Positions 3,979-13,332 of a stretch of DNA of 18,381 bases are shown piece after piece (the first letter of the stretch is position 1; each line of letters starts with the position of its first letter). The position numbers and the translations under genes are program-made. The stretch comes from a virus. The stretch lies in UHGV virus genome UHGV-1767510; one strand, written 5' to 3'. Under the pieces are notes generated by a model, which saw only the letters and a list, made by a program, of their open reading frames with translations, did not search any database and had not been told where the DNA came from.

Positions 3979-4428
3979 TTACTTAACCAATGATGCTGCA
4001 TATTCGATAAGGTAAAGCTTTGGGGCCAGCCAAATTTTTAACCAAGTCATATTGGTTACTACACCAATAATAAAAATCCCCCACAGAGTCAAAACTCCAA
4101 CCAATGGCATGATAAGAAGATTAATATCACCTTTGCTATCCCAAACCATTGTCGGCCTGTATTTGGGATTTCCTTTCTCCCATGAATATCCTTCATCACC
4201 GATTTTACCTGTCTCAACTCTTTGGCACTGCTTCTTCATAAACCAGAAAACCAGTGGGATTGTTAGAATGGCCATTAATGTTTTAATCAGACTGTCAACC
4301 ATATTCCATAGCAGCAACTGATGAACAACATCAGGAATCTGTGCCTGGCTAAATGAAACAGCCGCGTCTATTCCATTACTGGCTTTTTGCAGTAGTTCTA
4401 CGAGAATCTTGTTTGCTTGTTCTTCCAT
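3979..4428 (-). CDS. Small integral membrane protein, candidate superinfection-exclusion protein (sieB-like position)
   Basis: 149 aa with 2-3 hydrophobic helices (LMAILTIPLVFWFM; INLLIMPLVGVLTLWGIFIIGVV). Has its own RBS and flanking terminators; lies between N and cIII where lambda carries ral/sieB. Confidence 0.5.
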   Translation of the reverse strand: MEEQANKILVELLQKASNGIDAAVSFSQAQIPDVVHQLLLWNMVDSLIKTLMAILTIPLVFWFMKKQCQRVETGKIGDEGYSWEKGNPKYRPTMVWDSKGDINLLIMPLVGVLTLWGIFIIGVVTNMTWLKIWLAPKLYLIEYAASLVK

Positions 4429-5276: not shown

Positions 5277-5337
5277 CGTAGATTCATATTCGAATCGTTG
5301 TATATTCACCGCCCTGGTGAGTAGTGCGTCCTGCTGA

Positions 5338-5407
5338 TGTGTTTAGTATCACCGCCAGTGGTATTTATGTCAACACCGCTAGAGATAATTAATCACCGCA
5401 GATGGTT
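5338..5407 (-). promoter_or_regulatory. oL1-oL2-oL3 operators and pL promoter
   Basis: tatcaccgccagtggta (5347-5363), caacaccgctagagata (5371-5387) and aatcaccgcagatggtt (5391-5407) match lambda oL1/oL2/oL3 with at most 1-2 changes. On the - strand, -35 TTGACA and -10 GATACT direct leftward transcription. Confidence 0.85.
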
Positions 5408-5550
5408 ATCTGTATGTTTTTTATATGAATTTATTTTTTGCAGGGGGCATTGTTTGGTAGGTGAGAGATCTGAATTGCTATGTTTAGTGAGTTGTATCTA
5501 TTAATTTTCAAATAAATACAATTGGTTATGTGTTTTTTTTGGGGGGGTAG

Positions 5551-5578
5551 GCAAAGAAAACCCGGCTCGGTGGCCGGG
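5551..5578 (-). terminator. Intrinsic terminator ending the cI / cassette transcript
   Basis: Hairpin cccggc-tcggtg-gccggg (5561-5578) followed on the - strand by TTTTCTTTG; lies 8 bp past the stop of the 310-aa gene. Confidence 0.6.
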
Positions 5579-5585
5579 TGAGATA

Positions 5586-6518
5586 TTAAAGAACCGATTT
5601 AACAAGATGGTTTTTACGGTACAGACCTATGCGATCATTGTGAATCTCAGTAGTCTCCACTAAAAGAGAAACAATCTGTCCGACCTTGTGTTTTTTTTGT
5701 ATTAAATCTAGCATTTCAATCGGATAGGAAGCCTTTAAATGTTCACCACCAACATCAAGCTCCAGCTTCCCATATTTGGATAGAACGACCAGTTCGCCTG
5801 TAACCGTTTCAGTAATGGGAGGGGATGAAATGGTTGATGTAAGTCTACTCACCAAGTACTTAATTTTATTGGAGTCAATAGTTGCCACCTTGGTGCCATT
5901 ACTAAATGGACCGGTCCAACTTGCATCAAATGTTAAGTTGTGTTTATCGCATTCCTCTACGATTCTCTTAAGGCTTACAGTGGAATTGTATCCAATTTCA
6001 GCGACGTGATTCATGAAGTTGTTGTCGTCATCGCTTAACAACAAATCGAATATGCCTTTTACAGCCTTGCTGGGTACTGTTTCTACTAATTCTGCTATTC
6101 CTGTAGAGAAGGTGACGCCCAATTTTGTAGACCCAGGGGATAAATCAGCCAGCCTGAGGTTTAAGGAGCTTTTCACGTCGTAGGGAACTTTTTTTGAGTC
6201 CTTGCCTGAGGCAATTTTGTGTGTTGCTCTTTGTATTAGCGCTGCAAGATTTGTTGAAATAGCCCCAAGCAGCTCTAAAGGAATAGAGCCAAAGTCAACC
6301 TCAGAGCCTTTCAGCCGCAGCTCAAAAAAATCGATAAGTGGGTGCCGACTATCTTGCTTTAATTTTTCGGCCTTCAAATCGCTCAGATGAGAATCCATGG
6401 AGCGATAAAGAAGCATGTCAGCAAAGGACCTGGTTTTGTTTTGCTTCATTGCATCGACTTCTTTTTGAATGAAATCAATGCGTTTATCGCAATTTTTAAA
6501 CATTGATTTATCATTCAT
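5586..6518 (-). CDS. Unknown 310-aa protein, second gene of the rex-slot cassette (candidate effector or partner)
   Basis: Long ORF translationally coupled to the upstream gene (ATGA overlap at 6515-6518). No motif I can assign (no Walker A, HEPN, HNH or PD-(D/E)xK signatures seen by eye). Confidence 0.7.
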   Translation of the reverse strand: MNDKSMFKNCDKRIDFIQKEVDAMKQNKTRSFADMLLYRSMDSHLSDLKAEKLKQDSRHPLIDFFELRLKGSEVDFGSIPLELLGAISTNLAALIQRATHKIASGKDSKKVPYDVKSSLNLRLADLSPGSTKLGVTFSTGIAELVETVPSKAVKGIFDLLLSDDDNNFMNHVAEIGYNSTVSLKRIVEECDKHNLTFDASWTGPFSNGTKVATIDSNKIKYLVSRLTSTISSPPITETVTGELVVLSKYGKLELDVGGEHLKASYPIEMLDLIQKKHKVGQIVSLLVETTEIHNDRIGLYRKNHLVKSVL

Positions 6519-6994
6519 AAAAAAATCCTCACTAACCCTTTCGGGTTTTCACTGCGATCAAAACCAAACCAACCGCGCCAGTAGCTACGCCAGTACTCAT
6601 AATCATAGTTAGGGTCATCTAAATTCTTCATGAGTAGTAGGACATCAATTTTGTAGTTTTGTTTGATGTAGTTTCGGTCAAGCAAATTATCGACGCGGCC
6701 CCGAAGCATGACAGGTATTGAGTTTATATTGCTATAGTCACATACCAACAAAATATCAATATCATCAGGCTCTGGTTTAGACGTGGTGTATGAACCATCA
6801 ACCCATATTTCTGTAAAACAGCCATATTGAGCAGATAATTCTCGAATAGATTCGAGTAGCTGTATAAAATTACAGTATAGCATGCCTCGCCTGGATGATG
6901 AAGGAAAGCAATCGACACAATACGATTTTAATCCAGCTTCATCCATGTCATGGAACCCTGGCTCAAACAGGGGTGGGTAATTAATTTTATCCAT
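6515..6994 (-). CDS. Putative minimal nucleotidyltransferase-fold protein (159 aa), first gene of the rex-slot cassette
   Basis: Motif WVDGSYTTSKPEPDDIDILLV fits the Pol-beta superfamily NTase signature hG[GS]-x9-Dh[DE]h. RBS AAGG 6 nt before the ATG. Lies immediately downstream of cI, where lambda has rexA. Confidence 0.65.
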   Translation of the reverse strand: MDKINYPPLFEPGFHDMDEAGLKSYCVDCFPSSSRRGMLYCNFIQLLESIRELSAQYGCFTEIWVDGSYTTSKPEPDDIDILLVCDYSNINSIPVMLRGRVDNLLDRNYIKQNYKIDVLLLMKNLDDPNYDYEYWRSYWRGWFGFDRSENPKGLVRIFL

Positions 6995-7143
6995 AAAAAA
7001 CCTTGCTATACATTTGTTTTTTTTATTAAAAATCTAACCACCGAAATGGTGACGGCAAGATGTTACATGGGGTTACAATCAGCCAATACACCGCATTAAA
7101 TAATTTTTTCACCAGCTATGCGCCGACCAGAACACCTTGCCCA

Positions 7144-7860
<717 letters not shown>

Positions 7861-7867
7861 TTAAATC

Positions 7868-7933
7868 TATCACCGCAAGGGATAAACTTCTAACACCGTG
7901 CGTGTTGACTATTTTACCTCTAGCGGTGATAAT
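7868..7933. promoter_or_regulatory. oR3-oR2-oR1 operators with divergent pRM and pR promoters
   Basis: tatcaccgcaagggata (7868-7884), taacaccgtgcgtgttg (7891-7907) and tacctctagcggtgata (7915-7931) match lambda oR3/oR2/oR1. pR has -35 TTGACT (7905-7910) and -10 GATAAT (7928-7933). Confidence 0.85.
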
Positions 7934-7957
7934 GATTGCCTGTACTAAGGAGGTTGT

Positions 7958-8158
7958 ATGGAACAACGCATAACCCTGAAAGATTATGCAATACGCTTTG
8001 GGCAAACCAAGACGGCTAAAGATCTCGGCGTATATCAAAGCGCGATTAACAAGGCCATTCATGCAGGCCGAAAGATTTTTTTAACTATAAACGCTGATGG
8101 AAGCGTTTATGCGGAAGAAATAAAGCCCTTCCCAAGTAACAAAAAAACAACTGCATAA
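7958..8158 (+). CDS. cro: Cro repressor
   Basis: 66-aa protein [66 protein letters not shown], essentially lambda Cro; SD AAGGAGG upstream. Confidence 0.9.
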
Positions 8159-8165
8159 GTAACAC

Positions 8166-8211
8166 CGCTCTTTTCACAATGGACATTCGTCCTACGTCGC
8201 TGACAAAGCGA
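8166..8211 (+). promoter_or_regulatory. nutR (boxA-like CGCTCTTTT plus boxB hairpin tcgc-tgacaaa-gcga)
   Basis: boxA-like sequence at 8166-8174 and a boxB stem-loop at 8197-8211 with the same loop (TGACAAA) as the nutL element. Confidence 0.5.
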
Positions 8212-9627: not shown

Positions 9628-9735
9628 ATGAAATCAAAAATCAAATCGCTACTGGTCGCTGGTTATAACCACGGCTGGTTAAGTATTTCGTTTGTCGATT
9701 TCTGGTTTAAAAATCTCAATCTGAGGGAATCATGA
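9628..9735 (+). CDS. Small hypothetical ORF (35 aa) coupled to the primase-helicase gene
   Basis: ATG at 9628 with AGGTGA upstream; ends in an ATGA overlap with the start of the 968-aa gene. MKSKIKSLLVAGYNHGWLSISFVDFWFKNLNLRES. Could equally be non-coding leader. Confidence 0.2.
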   Translation: MKSKIKSLLVAGYNHGWLSISFVDFWFKNLNLRES

Positions 9736-12638
9736 CGCCAAGTGAACTTAGCGACCTGCTTTGGGCGCAGGTTGACAGGGTGGCTCCGCACCTGTTGCCA
9801 AACGGCAAGAAAGAGGGGCATGAGTGGGTTGCCGGTAACATCAACGGTGACAAGGGAAACAGCCTTAAGGTCAACCTTAGCGGCAAGAAAAAATGGGCTG
9901 ATTTCGCCGAGGGAGACGGCGGTGACATGCTTGATTTGTGGATGGCATGTCGTGGAATTAACCTGCATCAGGCTATGCAGGAAGCGAAAGCATTTCTCGG
10001 TATCAAGGATGACGATCACCATTTCGATGCCAGACGTGAGAAAAAATTCTCCAGACCTGATCGCAAGAAAATCGCCCGCTACGTTACCAGAACAGAATCC
10101 CATCTTGAGTACCTGCAATCGCGTGGCATATCGCCAGAAATCGTAAAGCGCTACGAGGTTGTCAGCGGCAAGGTGTGGAATGGAGAGCGGGAACTGGATG
10201 CTCTGGTGATTCCGTACAAACGCGATGGTGAGTTGTTGCAGGTCAAGCGAATCAGCACTGAGCGCCCGGACGGGAAGAAAGTCATTATGGCAGAAGGTGA
10301 TTGCGAACCTTGCCTGTTCGGATGGCAGGCTCTGGACGCTGGCGTGAGGGCGGTTGTGCTTTGCGAAGGCGAAATTGATTGTATGAGCTATGCGCAATAC
10401 GGCATCTCGGCGTTATCCGTGCCGTTTGGTGGCGGGAAAGGCGCTAAGCAACAGTGGATTGAGTTTGAGTATCACAACCTCGACAGGTTTGAGGAAATAT
10501 TCATCTCGATGGACGTTGATGATGTTGGTCGTGAAGCCGCAAGGGAAATCGCAAGCCGACTCGGTGAACATCGTTGCCGTCTTGTTACTCTGCCGTACAA
10601 AGACATCAACGAATGCCTGATGAACGGTGTTACCGAGGATGAAATCTGGCAGTACATCGGCACGGCATCCTACTTCGATCCTGAAGAACTCTACAGCGCG
10701 CGAGAGTTTTACCAGGACACTATCAACGCTTTCTACGGCAAGCAGCAGTATCTGTTTAATCCACCGTGGGAATCTCTGGCAGATAAATTCCAGTTCCGTG
10801 AGGCAGAGTTGACGCTGGTCAATGGTGTGAACGGTCACGGAAAAGCCTGTCCACTTGATGAACCAATTCTGCTCGCTAATGGTGAATGGACTACTCACGG
10901 GGATGTAAAAATTGGCGATCAGGTGGCATCAGTAGACGGCAATCCGTCAACTGTCACCGGGATATTCCCGCAGGGTGTTAGAGATGTTTACCGAGTCACA
11001 TTTGAAGATGGTCGTTATGTTGATTGCGCAGGCGATCACCTATGGGAGGTCACTAGTCGTGGATTCACGAAAGGCGAGAAGCGCCGCGTGATAGACACCT
11101 TCGAGCTGAAACGGTTGAGTGAAACGAAGAGGCACAAAAATGGCGTCAGGATACCCGAAATAACTGGTGACTTTGGCGACCACTCAGAGCCATTAGCATG
11201 GGTTATCGGCTCCCTTCTCGGGGATGGTAGTCTTAGCAATGGGAGCGTGAAGTTTTCAAACGTCGAGCCATACATGATCGAGCGTATGAAGGCTGAACTG
11301 CCTGATTACAACTTTTCTGGAGATGGTAAGGACTGGCTGATATCAACGGCGCGTGGTCAGGTAAATCCACTCATGGAGACCCTGCGAGTTTATGGACTAA
11401 TGGGGTGCACAGCAAAAAACAAATTCATCCCTCGTGTGTTTTTTTCCGCAAACAAATCAACGCGTATAGGAATGCTGTGTGGTCTGCTTGAAACGGATGG
11501 TTATGTCGAGAAGGATGGAACGCTTGTTTTTTCCTCAGCAAGTGAAGAACTGCGTAATGGGGTTGTTCAACTGGTTAACTCACTCGGCGGTTCATGCCGG
11601 ACGCGAGTTAAAACTGGCGTGACATACACATACAAGGGCGATAAGCGGCATGGGATGGATTCATATGAGGCAAGGATACGACTGACAAGGGAAATCAGGG
11701 AGGCCATCCGTTCACCACGACTCAATGGCAGATTAACTGCGCATCGATTCGAGGGGTGTGGGGTATTCGTCAGGAATGTTGAAAAAATCGGCAATGCAGA
11801 ATGCTTGTGTATCATGGTCGATCACCCTCGCCACCTGTATGTAACCAGAGGATATGTGGCAACGCATAACACCGAGGTTGTCGGGCATATGGCGCTTGAG
11901 GCAATGCGTCAGGGTGTGAAGACGTGCATCGCGTCACTTGAGCTGAAGCCTGGTATTCTCCTTAAGCGCCTTACCCGTCAGGCGACGTGCTGCAAGATGC
12001 CGCCAGTGCTGGAAATTGACTCTGCATTTAAATTTTATGACGAAAGACTTTGGGTGTTTGGCCTGACCGGAACGGCGAAAGCCGACAGGCTGATCGAAAT
12101 ATTCGACTACGCTCGCCGCCGATACGGGATCCAGTTATTCATCATCGACAGCCTGATGAAATGTGGCATAGGCGACGATGACTATAACGGGCAGAAGGCG
12201 TTTGTTGACTCGATTTGCGACTTCAAAAACAAAACAAACTCCCACGTCATTCTCGTTACTCACTCGCGAAAAGGAGACAGCGAAGAAAAACCAACCGGGA
12301 AAATGGACGTAAAAGGCTCTGGAGCGATAACAGACCTGACAGACAACCTTTTCATCATCTGGCGTAACAAGGCTCGCGAGAGAGCGTTACAGAGAGTTCA
12401 GAGTGGTGAAAAGATGTCAGAGAAGGACGAACAGCTACTGGCATCTCCGGCATCTGTTTTGATGCTTGAAAAACAACGTAACGGCGAAGGTTGGGAAGGT
12501 GGTGTCCCGTTGTTCCTTGACGAGCAATCGCACCAGTTCCTGCAACTTGAATCAGGATCGCCATATAGCTACATCGCCAATATGCCGAAATCGGAATATG
12601 ACGAGGCGTGGCGACAGGAAAACGTGACGGAGTATTAA
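9732..12638 (+). CDS. Bifunctional primase-helicase (Toprim primase domain + DnaB/gp4-like helicase domain) interrupted by an intein
   Basis: 968 aa. N-terminal Toprim-like motif (VVLCEGEIDCMSY). Walker A GVNGHGK[A]-T split by the insert; Walker B-like LFIIDSL and VILVTHSRKG downstream. Occupies the slot of lambda P (helicase loader), following O. Confidence 0.85.
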   Translation: MTPSELSDLLWAQVDRVAPHLLPNGKKEGHEWVAGNINGDKGNSLKVNLSGKKKWADFAEGDGGDMLDLWMACRGINLHQAMQEAKAFLGIKDDDHHFDARREKKFSRPDRKKIARYVTRTESHLEYLQSRGISPEIVKRYEVVSGKVWNGERELDALVIPYKRDGELLQVKRISTERPDGKKVIMAEGDCEPCLFGWQALDAGVRAVVLCEGEIDCMSYAQYGISALSVPFGGGKGAKQQWIEFEYHNLDRFEEIFISMDVDDVGREAAREIASRLGEHRCRLVTLPYKDINECLMNGVTEDEIWQYIGTASYFDPEELYSAREFYQDTINAFYGKQQYLFNPPWESLADKFQFREAELTLVNGVNGHGKACPLDEPILLANGEWTTHGDVKIGDQVASVDGNPSTVTGIFPQGVRDVYRVTFEDGRYVDCAGDHLWEVTSRGFTKGEKRRVIDTFELKRLSETKRHKNGVRIPEITGDFGDHSEPLAWVIGSLLGDGSLSNGSVKFSNVEPYMIERMKAELPDYNFSGDGKDWLISTARGQVNPLMETLRVYGLMGCTAKNKFIPRVFFSANKSTRIGMLCGLLETDGYVEKDGTLVFSSASEELRNGVVQLVNSLGGSCRTRVKTGVTYTYKGDKRHGMDSYEARIRLTREIREAIRSPRLNGRLTAHRFEGCGVFVRNVEKIGNAECLCIMVDHPRHLYVTRGYVATHNTEVVGHMALEAMRQGVKTCIASLELKPGILLKRLTRQATCCKMPPVLEIDSAFKFYDERLWVFGLTGTAKADRLIEIFDYARRRYGIQLFIIDSLMKCGIGDDDYNGQKAFVDSICDFKNKTNSHVILVTHSRKGDSEEKPTGKMDVKGSGAITDLTDNLFIIWRNKARERALQRVQSGEKMSEKDEQLLASPASVLMLEKQRNGEGWEGGVPLFLDEQSHQFLQLESGSPYSYIANMPKSEYDEAWRQENVTEY
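10848..11870 (+). mobile_element. Intein with LAGLIDADG homing-endonuclease domain, inserted in the helicase P-loop
   Basis: In-frame 341-aa insert starting CPLDEPILLANGEW... and ending ...YVATHN followed by Thr (+1 nucleophile). Two LAGLIDADG-like motifs (VIGSLLGDGSL; LCGLLETDGYV). Removing it restores a P-loop. The N-terminal boundary could be one residue earlier (Ala, 10845), which would give a perfect GVNGHGKT Walker A. Confidence 0.7.
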
Positions 12639-12720: not shown

Positions 12721-13332
12721 ATGCGAATAAAAAAACCAATTGATCACGATGAGCTTCTGTCAACATTATCATATGACTCAGAAACAGGAATATTTAAATG
12801 GCTAAAAACAAATTCAGTAGTAAGAGTAAAAGGTAGTATTGCTGGAGGTGTTAGTGGTGGTTATATATGCATTAGCATAAATAATGTTTTGTATTATGCG
12901 CATAGGCTTGCTTGGTTCTATGTATACAAAAAATGGCCTCCTAAGTTTATTGATCATGTAAATGGGAACAGACTTGACAATAGGATTTCAAATCTAAGAC
13001 TGGCAACAGAGGAGCAGAATGCAAGAAACATTGTAGGTAATAGGTTAAACACATCCGGTGCGATTGGAGTGTCTTGGGATAAGACAACTGGCAGGTGGAA
13101 GTCTTATGTTGGTTATAAAAATAAGACAATATCGTTAGGGTATTTCGATAGCAAAGAAGATGCAGCATTCATAGCAGCACTAGCAAGAAAGAAACTATAT
13201 GGAACTTATGCGAGTAAAGCACTTAATTGCGAGCATGAGCTTTTATCTCAATTTAATAATGATGAGGATAAACTTGCGGAATATCTTAAGGAAAAATCTA
13301 AAAGGACTCGAAAGCGTGTTAAAAAAAGATAA
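12721..13332 (+). CDS. Free-standing HNH homing endonuclease with AP2-like DNA-binding domain
   Basis: HNH motif ...YYAHRLAWFYVYKKWPPKFIDHVNGNRLDNRISNLRLATEEQNARN, plus AP2-like GVSWDKTTGRWKSYVGYKNKTISLGYFDSKEDAA. The gene and its flanks are visibly AT-rich compared with neighbours (not computed). Confidence 0.8.
   Translation: MRIKKPIDHDELLSTLSYDSETGIFKWLKTNSVVRVKGSIAGGVSGGYICISINNVLYYAHRLAWFYVYKKWPPKFIDHVNGNRLDNRISNLRLATEEQNARNIVGNRLNTSGAIGVSWDKTTGRWKSYVGYKNKTISLGYFDSKEDAAFIAALARKKLYGTYASKALNCEHELLSQFNNDEDKLAEYLKEKSKRTRKRVKKR

Follow-up and report, generated by a model that had tools for sequence, protein, structure and literature searches.

A catalogued nucleotidyltransferase gene pair, PDC-M63, in the rexAB position of a lambda-type immunity region

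In phage lambda, the cI repressor gene is followed by rexA and rexB. We analyzed an 18,381-nucleotide stretch of viral DNA, genome UHGV-1767510 (hereafter the window, to which all positions refer unless another locus is named), in which the lambda rexB-rexA segment has been swapped for two minus-strand genes. Gene A (6994-6515) codes for a 159-residue minimal nucleotidyltransferase (MNT) of the DUF6932/PDC-M63A type and gene B (6518-5586) for a 310-residue partner, PDC-M63B. By every feature that can be computed from sequence, this cassette is a member of PDC-M63, a candidate phage defense system already in the catalogue. We tentatively favor, at a little under even confidence, a reading in which the pair is a conflict module expressed by the lysogen, acting in abortive infection, superinfection exclusion or a toxin-antitoxin (TA)-like manner by a logic similar to that of MntA-HepT, with Ser130 of B as the likely acceptor.

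The setting of the cassette is that of lambda. On the minus strand the order is cI, leader, A, B, a hairpin with a T tract, oL3 to oL1 with pL, and N. The lambda-type cI gene (7857-7144, minus strand, 237 residues) lies directly upstream of, and on the same strand as, a 149-nucleotide leader (6995-7143, from the cI stop to the A start) and gene A. The downstream limit of the immunity-region slot is pL (-35/-10 at 5373-5345, minus strand), with the minus-strand operators oL1 (5347-5363), oL2 (5371-5387) and oL3 (5391-5407) filling the region 5345-5407; N (5096-4713, minus strand) lies beyond. On the other side of cI, the plus-strand operators oR3 (7868-7884), oR2 (7891-7907) and oR1 (7915-7931) span 7868-7931, and a promoter scan placed a pR-like promoter at 7905-7933 on the same strand. 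Window 7113-8172, comprising 31 nucleotides after cI, cI itself, oR and cro, is 96.9% identical to lambda, and window 5306-5579, from pL/oL to the base after the rexB stop, is 90% identical; the segment exchanged is thus 5580-7112. All six operators differ from those of lambda by at most one mismatch. The original prediction, which was made from the letters of this DNA, had placed a two-gene pair where rexAB would be expected, between a lambda-like cI and lambda-like operators, and our comparison bears this out. It had also proposed that the genes are coupled through an ATGA overlap, which we confirmed on the coding strand (6515-6518, TCAT on the plus strand), and that the cassette is AT-richer than cI, as the GC contents indicate (39.6% for the cassette against 45.5% for cI and 45.4% for the window).

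The leader is composite: positions 7113-7143 are lambda-like and 6995-7112 are specific to the cassette. Homology with phage mEpX1 extends over window 5550-7170, which shows that leader and cassette move together. A weak hairpin (7056-7037) lies within the leader, and a promoter scan of 6995-7143 gave no match at the scan threshold. A promoter-like site within A (6714-6686) was set aside as not meaningful, since the scan returned a total of four sites against 7.3 in shuffled sequence. In lysogens, A and B are likely expressed from pRM and pRE transcripts, and it is from pRM that we infer this expression.

At its other end the cassette is followed by an intrinsic terminator hairpin and T tract (5551-5579, minus strand; hairpin proper 5560-5579). 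The same hairpin is conserved just after rexB in lambda (35800-35825, locus L173), where it is t_imm, and in mEpX1; it is consequently the conserved left edge of the slot and lies outside the insert. Short matches of 84-89% to this stretch occur in HK97, HK106, mEp234 and many Shiga toxin (Stx) phages. The original prediction had assigned the cassette an intrinsic terminator of its own at 5551-5578. The hairpin and T tract are real, but they are the lambdoid t_imm equivalent shared with other phages and do not belong to the cassette. Judged by these alignments, the 3' end of cI and the t_imm-type hairpin are conserved linkers that bracket an exchangeable slot.

We then compared both proteins with existing catalogues. 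In PADLOC-DB, A matches PDC-M63A (E 1.8e-41, over residues 1-158 of 159) and B matches PDC-M63B (E 7.5e-45); six B models match, and the B gene is adjacent to A, on the same strand, with a 4-nucleotide overlap. There is also a weak similarity to the PADLOC model PDC-M32A (E 3.4e-5). A also matches the Pfam family DUF6932 (E 1.7e-24), Pfam has no family for B, and NCBIfam gave no match for either protein. In PHROG, A is phrog_9194 and B is phrog_6603. The same DNA is present in phage mEpX1 at 99.6-99.7% identity, behind a different repressor, and in 18 of 5426 complete E. coli genomes at an identity of at least 99.8%; the E. coli copies are annotated as a "DUF6932 family protein" and a "hypothetical protein". 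In E. coli KL53 (NZ_CP030919.1, H86) the match covers 89% of the cassette and falls in two places, so this copy may be interrupted or rearranged. The PDC entries are 145 "phage defence candidates" predicted computationally by "guilt-by-embedding" (Payne et al., bioRxiv 10.1101/2024.01.29.577857). PDC-M63, listed as cassette CAS_00189 in the supplement of that study, was picked because its members are embedded in BREX (bacteriophage exclusion), DISARM or type I restriction-modification (RM) loci (10.1101/2024.01.29.577857). Thus, the suggestion that the pair might be of a type not yet described does not hold: both proteins already have PDC-M63 and PHROG entries and a copy in mEpX1, and with this cassette a listed candidate has been re-discovered; the system is not new.

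Protein A contains the peptide WVDGSYTTSKPEPDDIDILLV, whose core, GS-x9-DID, occupies residues 67-80; the catalytic motif G67 S68...D78 x D80 is encoded by codons 6796-6755 on the minus strand. The original prediction had read this as the Pol-beta-superfamily signature hG[GS]-x9-DhD. The motif is present, but the residue preceding GS is Asp, so that the hydrophobic position of hG[GS] is not matched literally. A relaxed form of the motif also arose in 1.3% of shuffles of A, which makes it weak evidence by itself. Among 206 unique A homologues, W64, G67, S68, T71, D78 and D80 are invariant, R36, K73, P76, K152 and G153 are nearly so, and D117, a third acidic position, is conserved in at least 90%. 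The AlphaFold2 model (predicted local distance difference test, pLDDT, 96) has the nucleotidyltransferase alpha/beta fold that had been expected of it, and the nearest solved structures are MNT subunits; sequence and profile searches of the PDB with A returned nothing significant. Taken together, the family-wide invariance and the fold establish that the GS...DxD motif is real. We conclude that A is an MNT-type minimal nucleotidyltransferase of the Pol-beta superfamily, with an active site predicted to be intact. The most conserved stretch of the family is a second, C-terminal motif, RSYWRGWFGF (residues 136-145). The protein is acidic (pI 4.7), and its maximal 19-residue hydropathy of 1.25 indicates that it has no transmembrane segment.

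For protein B, a HMMER scan of 1.84 billion representative proteins yielded 202 relatives, nearly all of 300-320 residues, which points to a single architecture for the family. The AlphaFold2 model (pLDDT 82.6) has three parts: an N-terminal helical hairpin (residues 10-56), a family-private alpha/beta domain in the middle (about 59-232) and a C-terminal OB fold (about 233-310). The last is a five-stranded beta barrel with a helix between strands 3 and 4, as in single-stranded DNA-binding protein (SSB), RPA and RuvA-I, and it probably binds single-stranded nucleic acid. Apart from this OB-fold signal, Foldseek found no PDB match to B at E ≤0.001; sequence and profile searches of the PDB, with close and with broad alignments, gave nothing significant, and 143 B homologues compared with Pfam produced scattered coiled-coil noise only. 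The middle domain has no significant PDB match by sequence or structure and none in Pfam, and a profile search with this domain alone recovered only the B family, so that there are no domain fusions from which a function could be borrowed. It carries the invariant pair G129-S130. Among 306 unique sequences of about 20-30% identity, all 303 aligned ones have S130 (codon 6131-6129, minus strand) and 302 of the 303 have G129, both in a loop modelled at a confidence below 50; W201, G77 and G176 are further invariant positions. Across the same 306 sequences, identity stays below 93% at every Asp, Glu, His and Lys position, and this lack of a conserved catalytic set makes B look non-enzymatic. With a maximal 19-residue hydropathy of 1.38, and hence no transmembrane segment, B is soluble; A is the only enzyme of the pair.

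The association of the two genes was followed in loci returned by pattern scans, 80 from species-representative genomes and 80 from IMG/VR, together with loci already retrieved. Of 172 loci, at least 165 show the order A then B in the same orientation; a strict count gives 153, and most of the loci outside it are artefacts of longest-ORF (open reading frame) calling. The ATGA overlap is found in 96 of the 153. On viral contigs with a B locus, A was on the same contig in every case found. The hosts include Enterobacterales, Vibrio, Bacteroidota, Desulfobacterota, Nitrospirota, Acidobacteriota, Clostridia, Verrucomicrobiota and the candidate phyla radiation (CPR). The A-B pair is therefore obligate across phyla and translationally coupled. 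In IMGVR_UViG_3300031418_000767 (L110/L190), A is 83% and B 63% identical to the proteins of the window, so that the two genes either evolve at different rates or have recombined separately.

Three loci depart from the standard architecture. In L035, A is intact and B is frameshifted. In L071 (5989-6851), a diverged A precedes a 135-residue mini-B consisting of the hairpin and the OB fold without the middle domain (hhalign 97%). In L091 (6001-9026), a diverged A stands inside an RM locus, between a type I/IIG-like methylase and an HsdR-like helicase to which it is translationally coupled. In both L071 and L091, A lacks RSYWRGWFGF and its partner lacks the B middle domain; this joint loss hints that the motif and the domain work together. 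A resemblance of the HsdR-like N-terminus of L091 to the B hairpin was weak (hhalign 47%) and was not relied on.

In Enterobacterales the mobile pair is found preferentially behind the repressors of prophages. An S24-type (cI/LexA-type) repressor is directly upstream, on the same strand, at 48 of 77 IMG/VR loci and at only one of 75 loci in taxonomically diverse genomes. In Enterobacterales, the window's allele (at least 90% identity) is found behind nine repressor types and the family behind at least 22, from which it follows that the cassette moves independently of immunity. Leader, A and B move as a unit into the variable slot between the repressor and t_imm/oL. Elsewhere, the neighbors are a type I RM system with YoeB/YefM (L005), a large Upf1-like helicase (L009), or phage early genes, among them Lar, RadC and an orphan methylase, with no adjacent repressor (L010 and L011); other loci lie near SIR2, HEC-01, PD-T7-4 and type IIG RM genes.

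The slot itself accepts varied cargo. Behind the identical cI protein (WP_021568302.1), E. coli E272 has a BstA homologue (L234, 2509-3414) and E. coli PD7 a DUF2335 protein (L235, 2615-3148). A lambda-type cI is present in 618 of the 5426 complete E. coli genomes, rexAB in 99 and the cassette in 18; most of the cargo is consequently something else, largely unstudied. Owen et al. (2021, PMC8585504) described the cI-N interval as a mosaic hotspot that shares the repressor promoter and in which abortive infection is represented by RexAB and BstA. The position of the pair in this slot is consistent with a role in conflict, as far as evidence from location goes.

We propose the following scheme for the favored, MntA-HepT-like reading. 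The pair would be transcribed with cI in lysogens, most likely; A would transfer a nucleoside monophosphate (NMP) to a hydroxyl group, for which the invariant Ser130 in the flexible loop of B is the likeliest candidate; this transfer would switch the activity of B on nucleic acid on or off; and infection would disturb the A-B balance. Such a switch is favored by the gene order, by the closest structural relatives of A, by the invariant and flexible serine loop, by the co-variation of the RSYWRGWFGF motif with the middle domain, and by the tolerated loss of B in L035. Nucleotidylation of Ser130 is a hypothesis suggested by an invariant serine in a loop predicted to be flexible, and we likewise infer the defense function, the acceptor and the direction of control.

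Several observations weigh against this scheme. Deletion of PDC-M63AB from a prophage of its native host, E. coli NILS69, left both the efficiency of plating and liquid-culture infection unchanged with 10 virulent phages (10.1101/2024.12.20.629700). This is the sole functional test of PDC-M63 that we found in the literature; searches with DUF6932, the RefSeq and mEpX1 identifiers and the PHROG ids brought up no functional study. B has no recognizable toxic or effector domain, so that a B acting as the regulated effector lacks a stated activity. The mini-B of L071 has no Ser130 loop, and modification of this serine therefore cannot be universal. Many chromosomal copies are flanked by housekeeping genes. 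Finally, the weak hairpin between cI and A means that read-through from pRM is assumed. Thus, the earlier proposal of a defense or TA-like module agrees with the PADLOC assignment and with the proven abortive-infection genes that the slot holds elsewhere; the only published test was negative.

That B has no identifiable toxic activity also makes a MenT/AbiEii-like arrangement the main rival, and nearly as likely, even if in absolute terms we regard it as unlikely. Nucleotidyltransferase toxins of this kind are established in the MenT and AbiEii families. Here, A would be a toxic enzyme adding nucleotides to the 3' end of tRNA or to other nucleic-acid ends, and B its antitoxin and sensor, with an OB fold that either recruits the substrate or recognizes phage single-stranded DNA or an SSB-like protein and thereby releases A. 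Such roles suit a pair in which A, with its fully conserved active site, is the only enzyme and B has no catalytic signature. However, A matches neither AbiEii/DUF1814 nor any PADLOC AbiE model and, at 159 residues, is much smaller; the nucleotidyltransferase-first order is that of MntA-HepT and not of AbiEi-AbiEii; and the intact A beside a frameshifted B in L035 would be unexpected if B were an essential antitoxin, bearing in mind that this is a single case and that a sequencing error is possible.

A somewhat smaller probability attaches to the view that the pair is not anti-phage at all, and is instead an addiction or stability TA module, or a pair concerned with the physiology of lysogeny, that hitch-hikes in a permissive mosaic junction of lambdoid phages and in other mobile elements. 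The negative NILS69 knock-out and the many housekeeping neighbors fit this view, as do the location of the pair, which the cI 3' end and t_imm flank as conserved recombination linkers, its 100% DNA identity across unrelated hosts, suggestive of recent spread, and the viral contigs L010 and L011, which carry it among early or anti-restriction genes and not beside a repressor. Against this, the other known cargo of the slot, rexAB and BstA, consists of abortive-infection genes, members of the family occur within or beside RM systems, and the published test covered only 10 virulent phages in a single host.

Less probable than either of these rivals is the more ambitious version of the favored scheme, in which PDC-M63 would be a mechanistically new prophage immunity switch, A nucleotidylating S130 of an OB-fold, nucleic-acid-binding B and so arming or disarming an abortive response to superinfection; this we consider doubtful. 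A CBASS- or Hailong-like system (CBASS, cyclic-oligonucleotide-based anti-phage signaling system), in which A would make a nucleotide or oligonucleotide second messenger for which B is receptor and effector, is very improbable, since the resemblances that could speak for it (of B, to a SAVED protein at E 0.72 and, in Foldseek, to cyclase/Cas10 palm domains at a probability of 0.09-0.44) are very weak and at chance level, no Pfam or PADLOC CBASS model matches, A is without the C-terminal helical domain of cGAS/DncV-like nucleotidyltransferases (CD-NTases), and B has neither an effector domain nor a transmembrane segment.

The cI-N slot is transcribed in every lysogen and holds the classic exclusion systems RexAB and BstA, and the near-lambda immunity region makes lambda genetics directly applicable to the cassette. 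Identifying the target of A would validate or retire one of PADLOC's 145 candidates and could reveal a new use of nucleotidylation in phage-host conflict. If true, an S130 switch would mean that control of type VII (MntA-HepT-like) also acts on an effector that is neither HEPN nor an enzyme, and that the lambda rex slot has a second abortive-infection system, and a tractable one.

Other features of the window were recorded in passing. A plus-strand gene (9732-12638) codes for a 968-residue replication protein with Toprim_2 (residues 209-296) and AAA_25 (787-849) domains and an apparent intein-like insert, marked by a Hom_end-associated Hint domain (379-424) and LAGLIDADG_3 (579-632); PADLOC homing-endonuclease models also match it. 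Just after this primase/helicase gene, a 203-residue HNH_3 and AP2 protein (12721-13332, plus strand) looks like a free-standing homing endonuclease, and its gene lies in the part of the window with the lowest GC content (0.34-0.38). A 149-residue ORF (3979-4428, minus strand) that follows N in the pL operon has visibly hydrophobic segments; neither Pfam nor PADLOC matches it, and it may be a further gene for lysogenic conversion or exclusion.

Among known systems, MntA-HepT resembles the pair in that a minimal nucleotidyltransferase comes first and is translationally coupled to its partner, and MNT subunits are the nearest solved structures to A. B, unlike HepT, does not belong to the HEPN RNases: Pfam gives it no HEPN match, it has no conserved Rx4-6H or Arg/His pair, only one of the 143 B homologues gave a weak match to each of two HEPN families, and B is instead built of a hairpin, a private domain and an OB fold. 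A in addition exceeds typical MNTs by about 50 residues and bears RSYWRGWFGF as a motif of its own. AbiE and MenAT are also two-gene, nucleotidyltransferase-containing abortive-infection or TA systems on mobile elements, but A and B match no AbiE Pfam or PADLOC model, their two genes stand in the opposite order, AbiEii is about twice as large as A, and B is without the winged-helix AbiEi domain. RexAB, too, consists of two genes in the same slot downstream of cI and upstream of t_imm/oL; it differs in showing no sequence similarity, in that RexB is a membrane protein whereas B is soluble, and in that A is a nucleotidyltransferase. BstA is likewise carried by prophages immediately after the repressor gene, in E272 after the identical cI, but it is one protein, unrelated in family, whose abortive-infection activity has been proven (PMC8585504). 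With PDC-M63, itself a computational candidate, there is no structural difference, and the cassette belongs to the same family. The cassette lacks the defining features of HEPN-MNT, AbiE/MenAT, CBASS and RexAB, and may possibly work like the first or the second of these.

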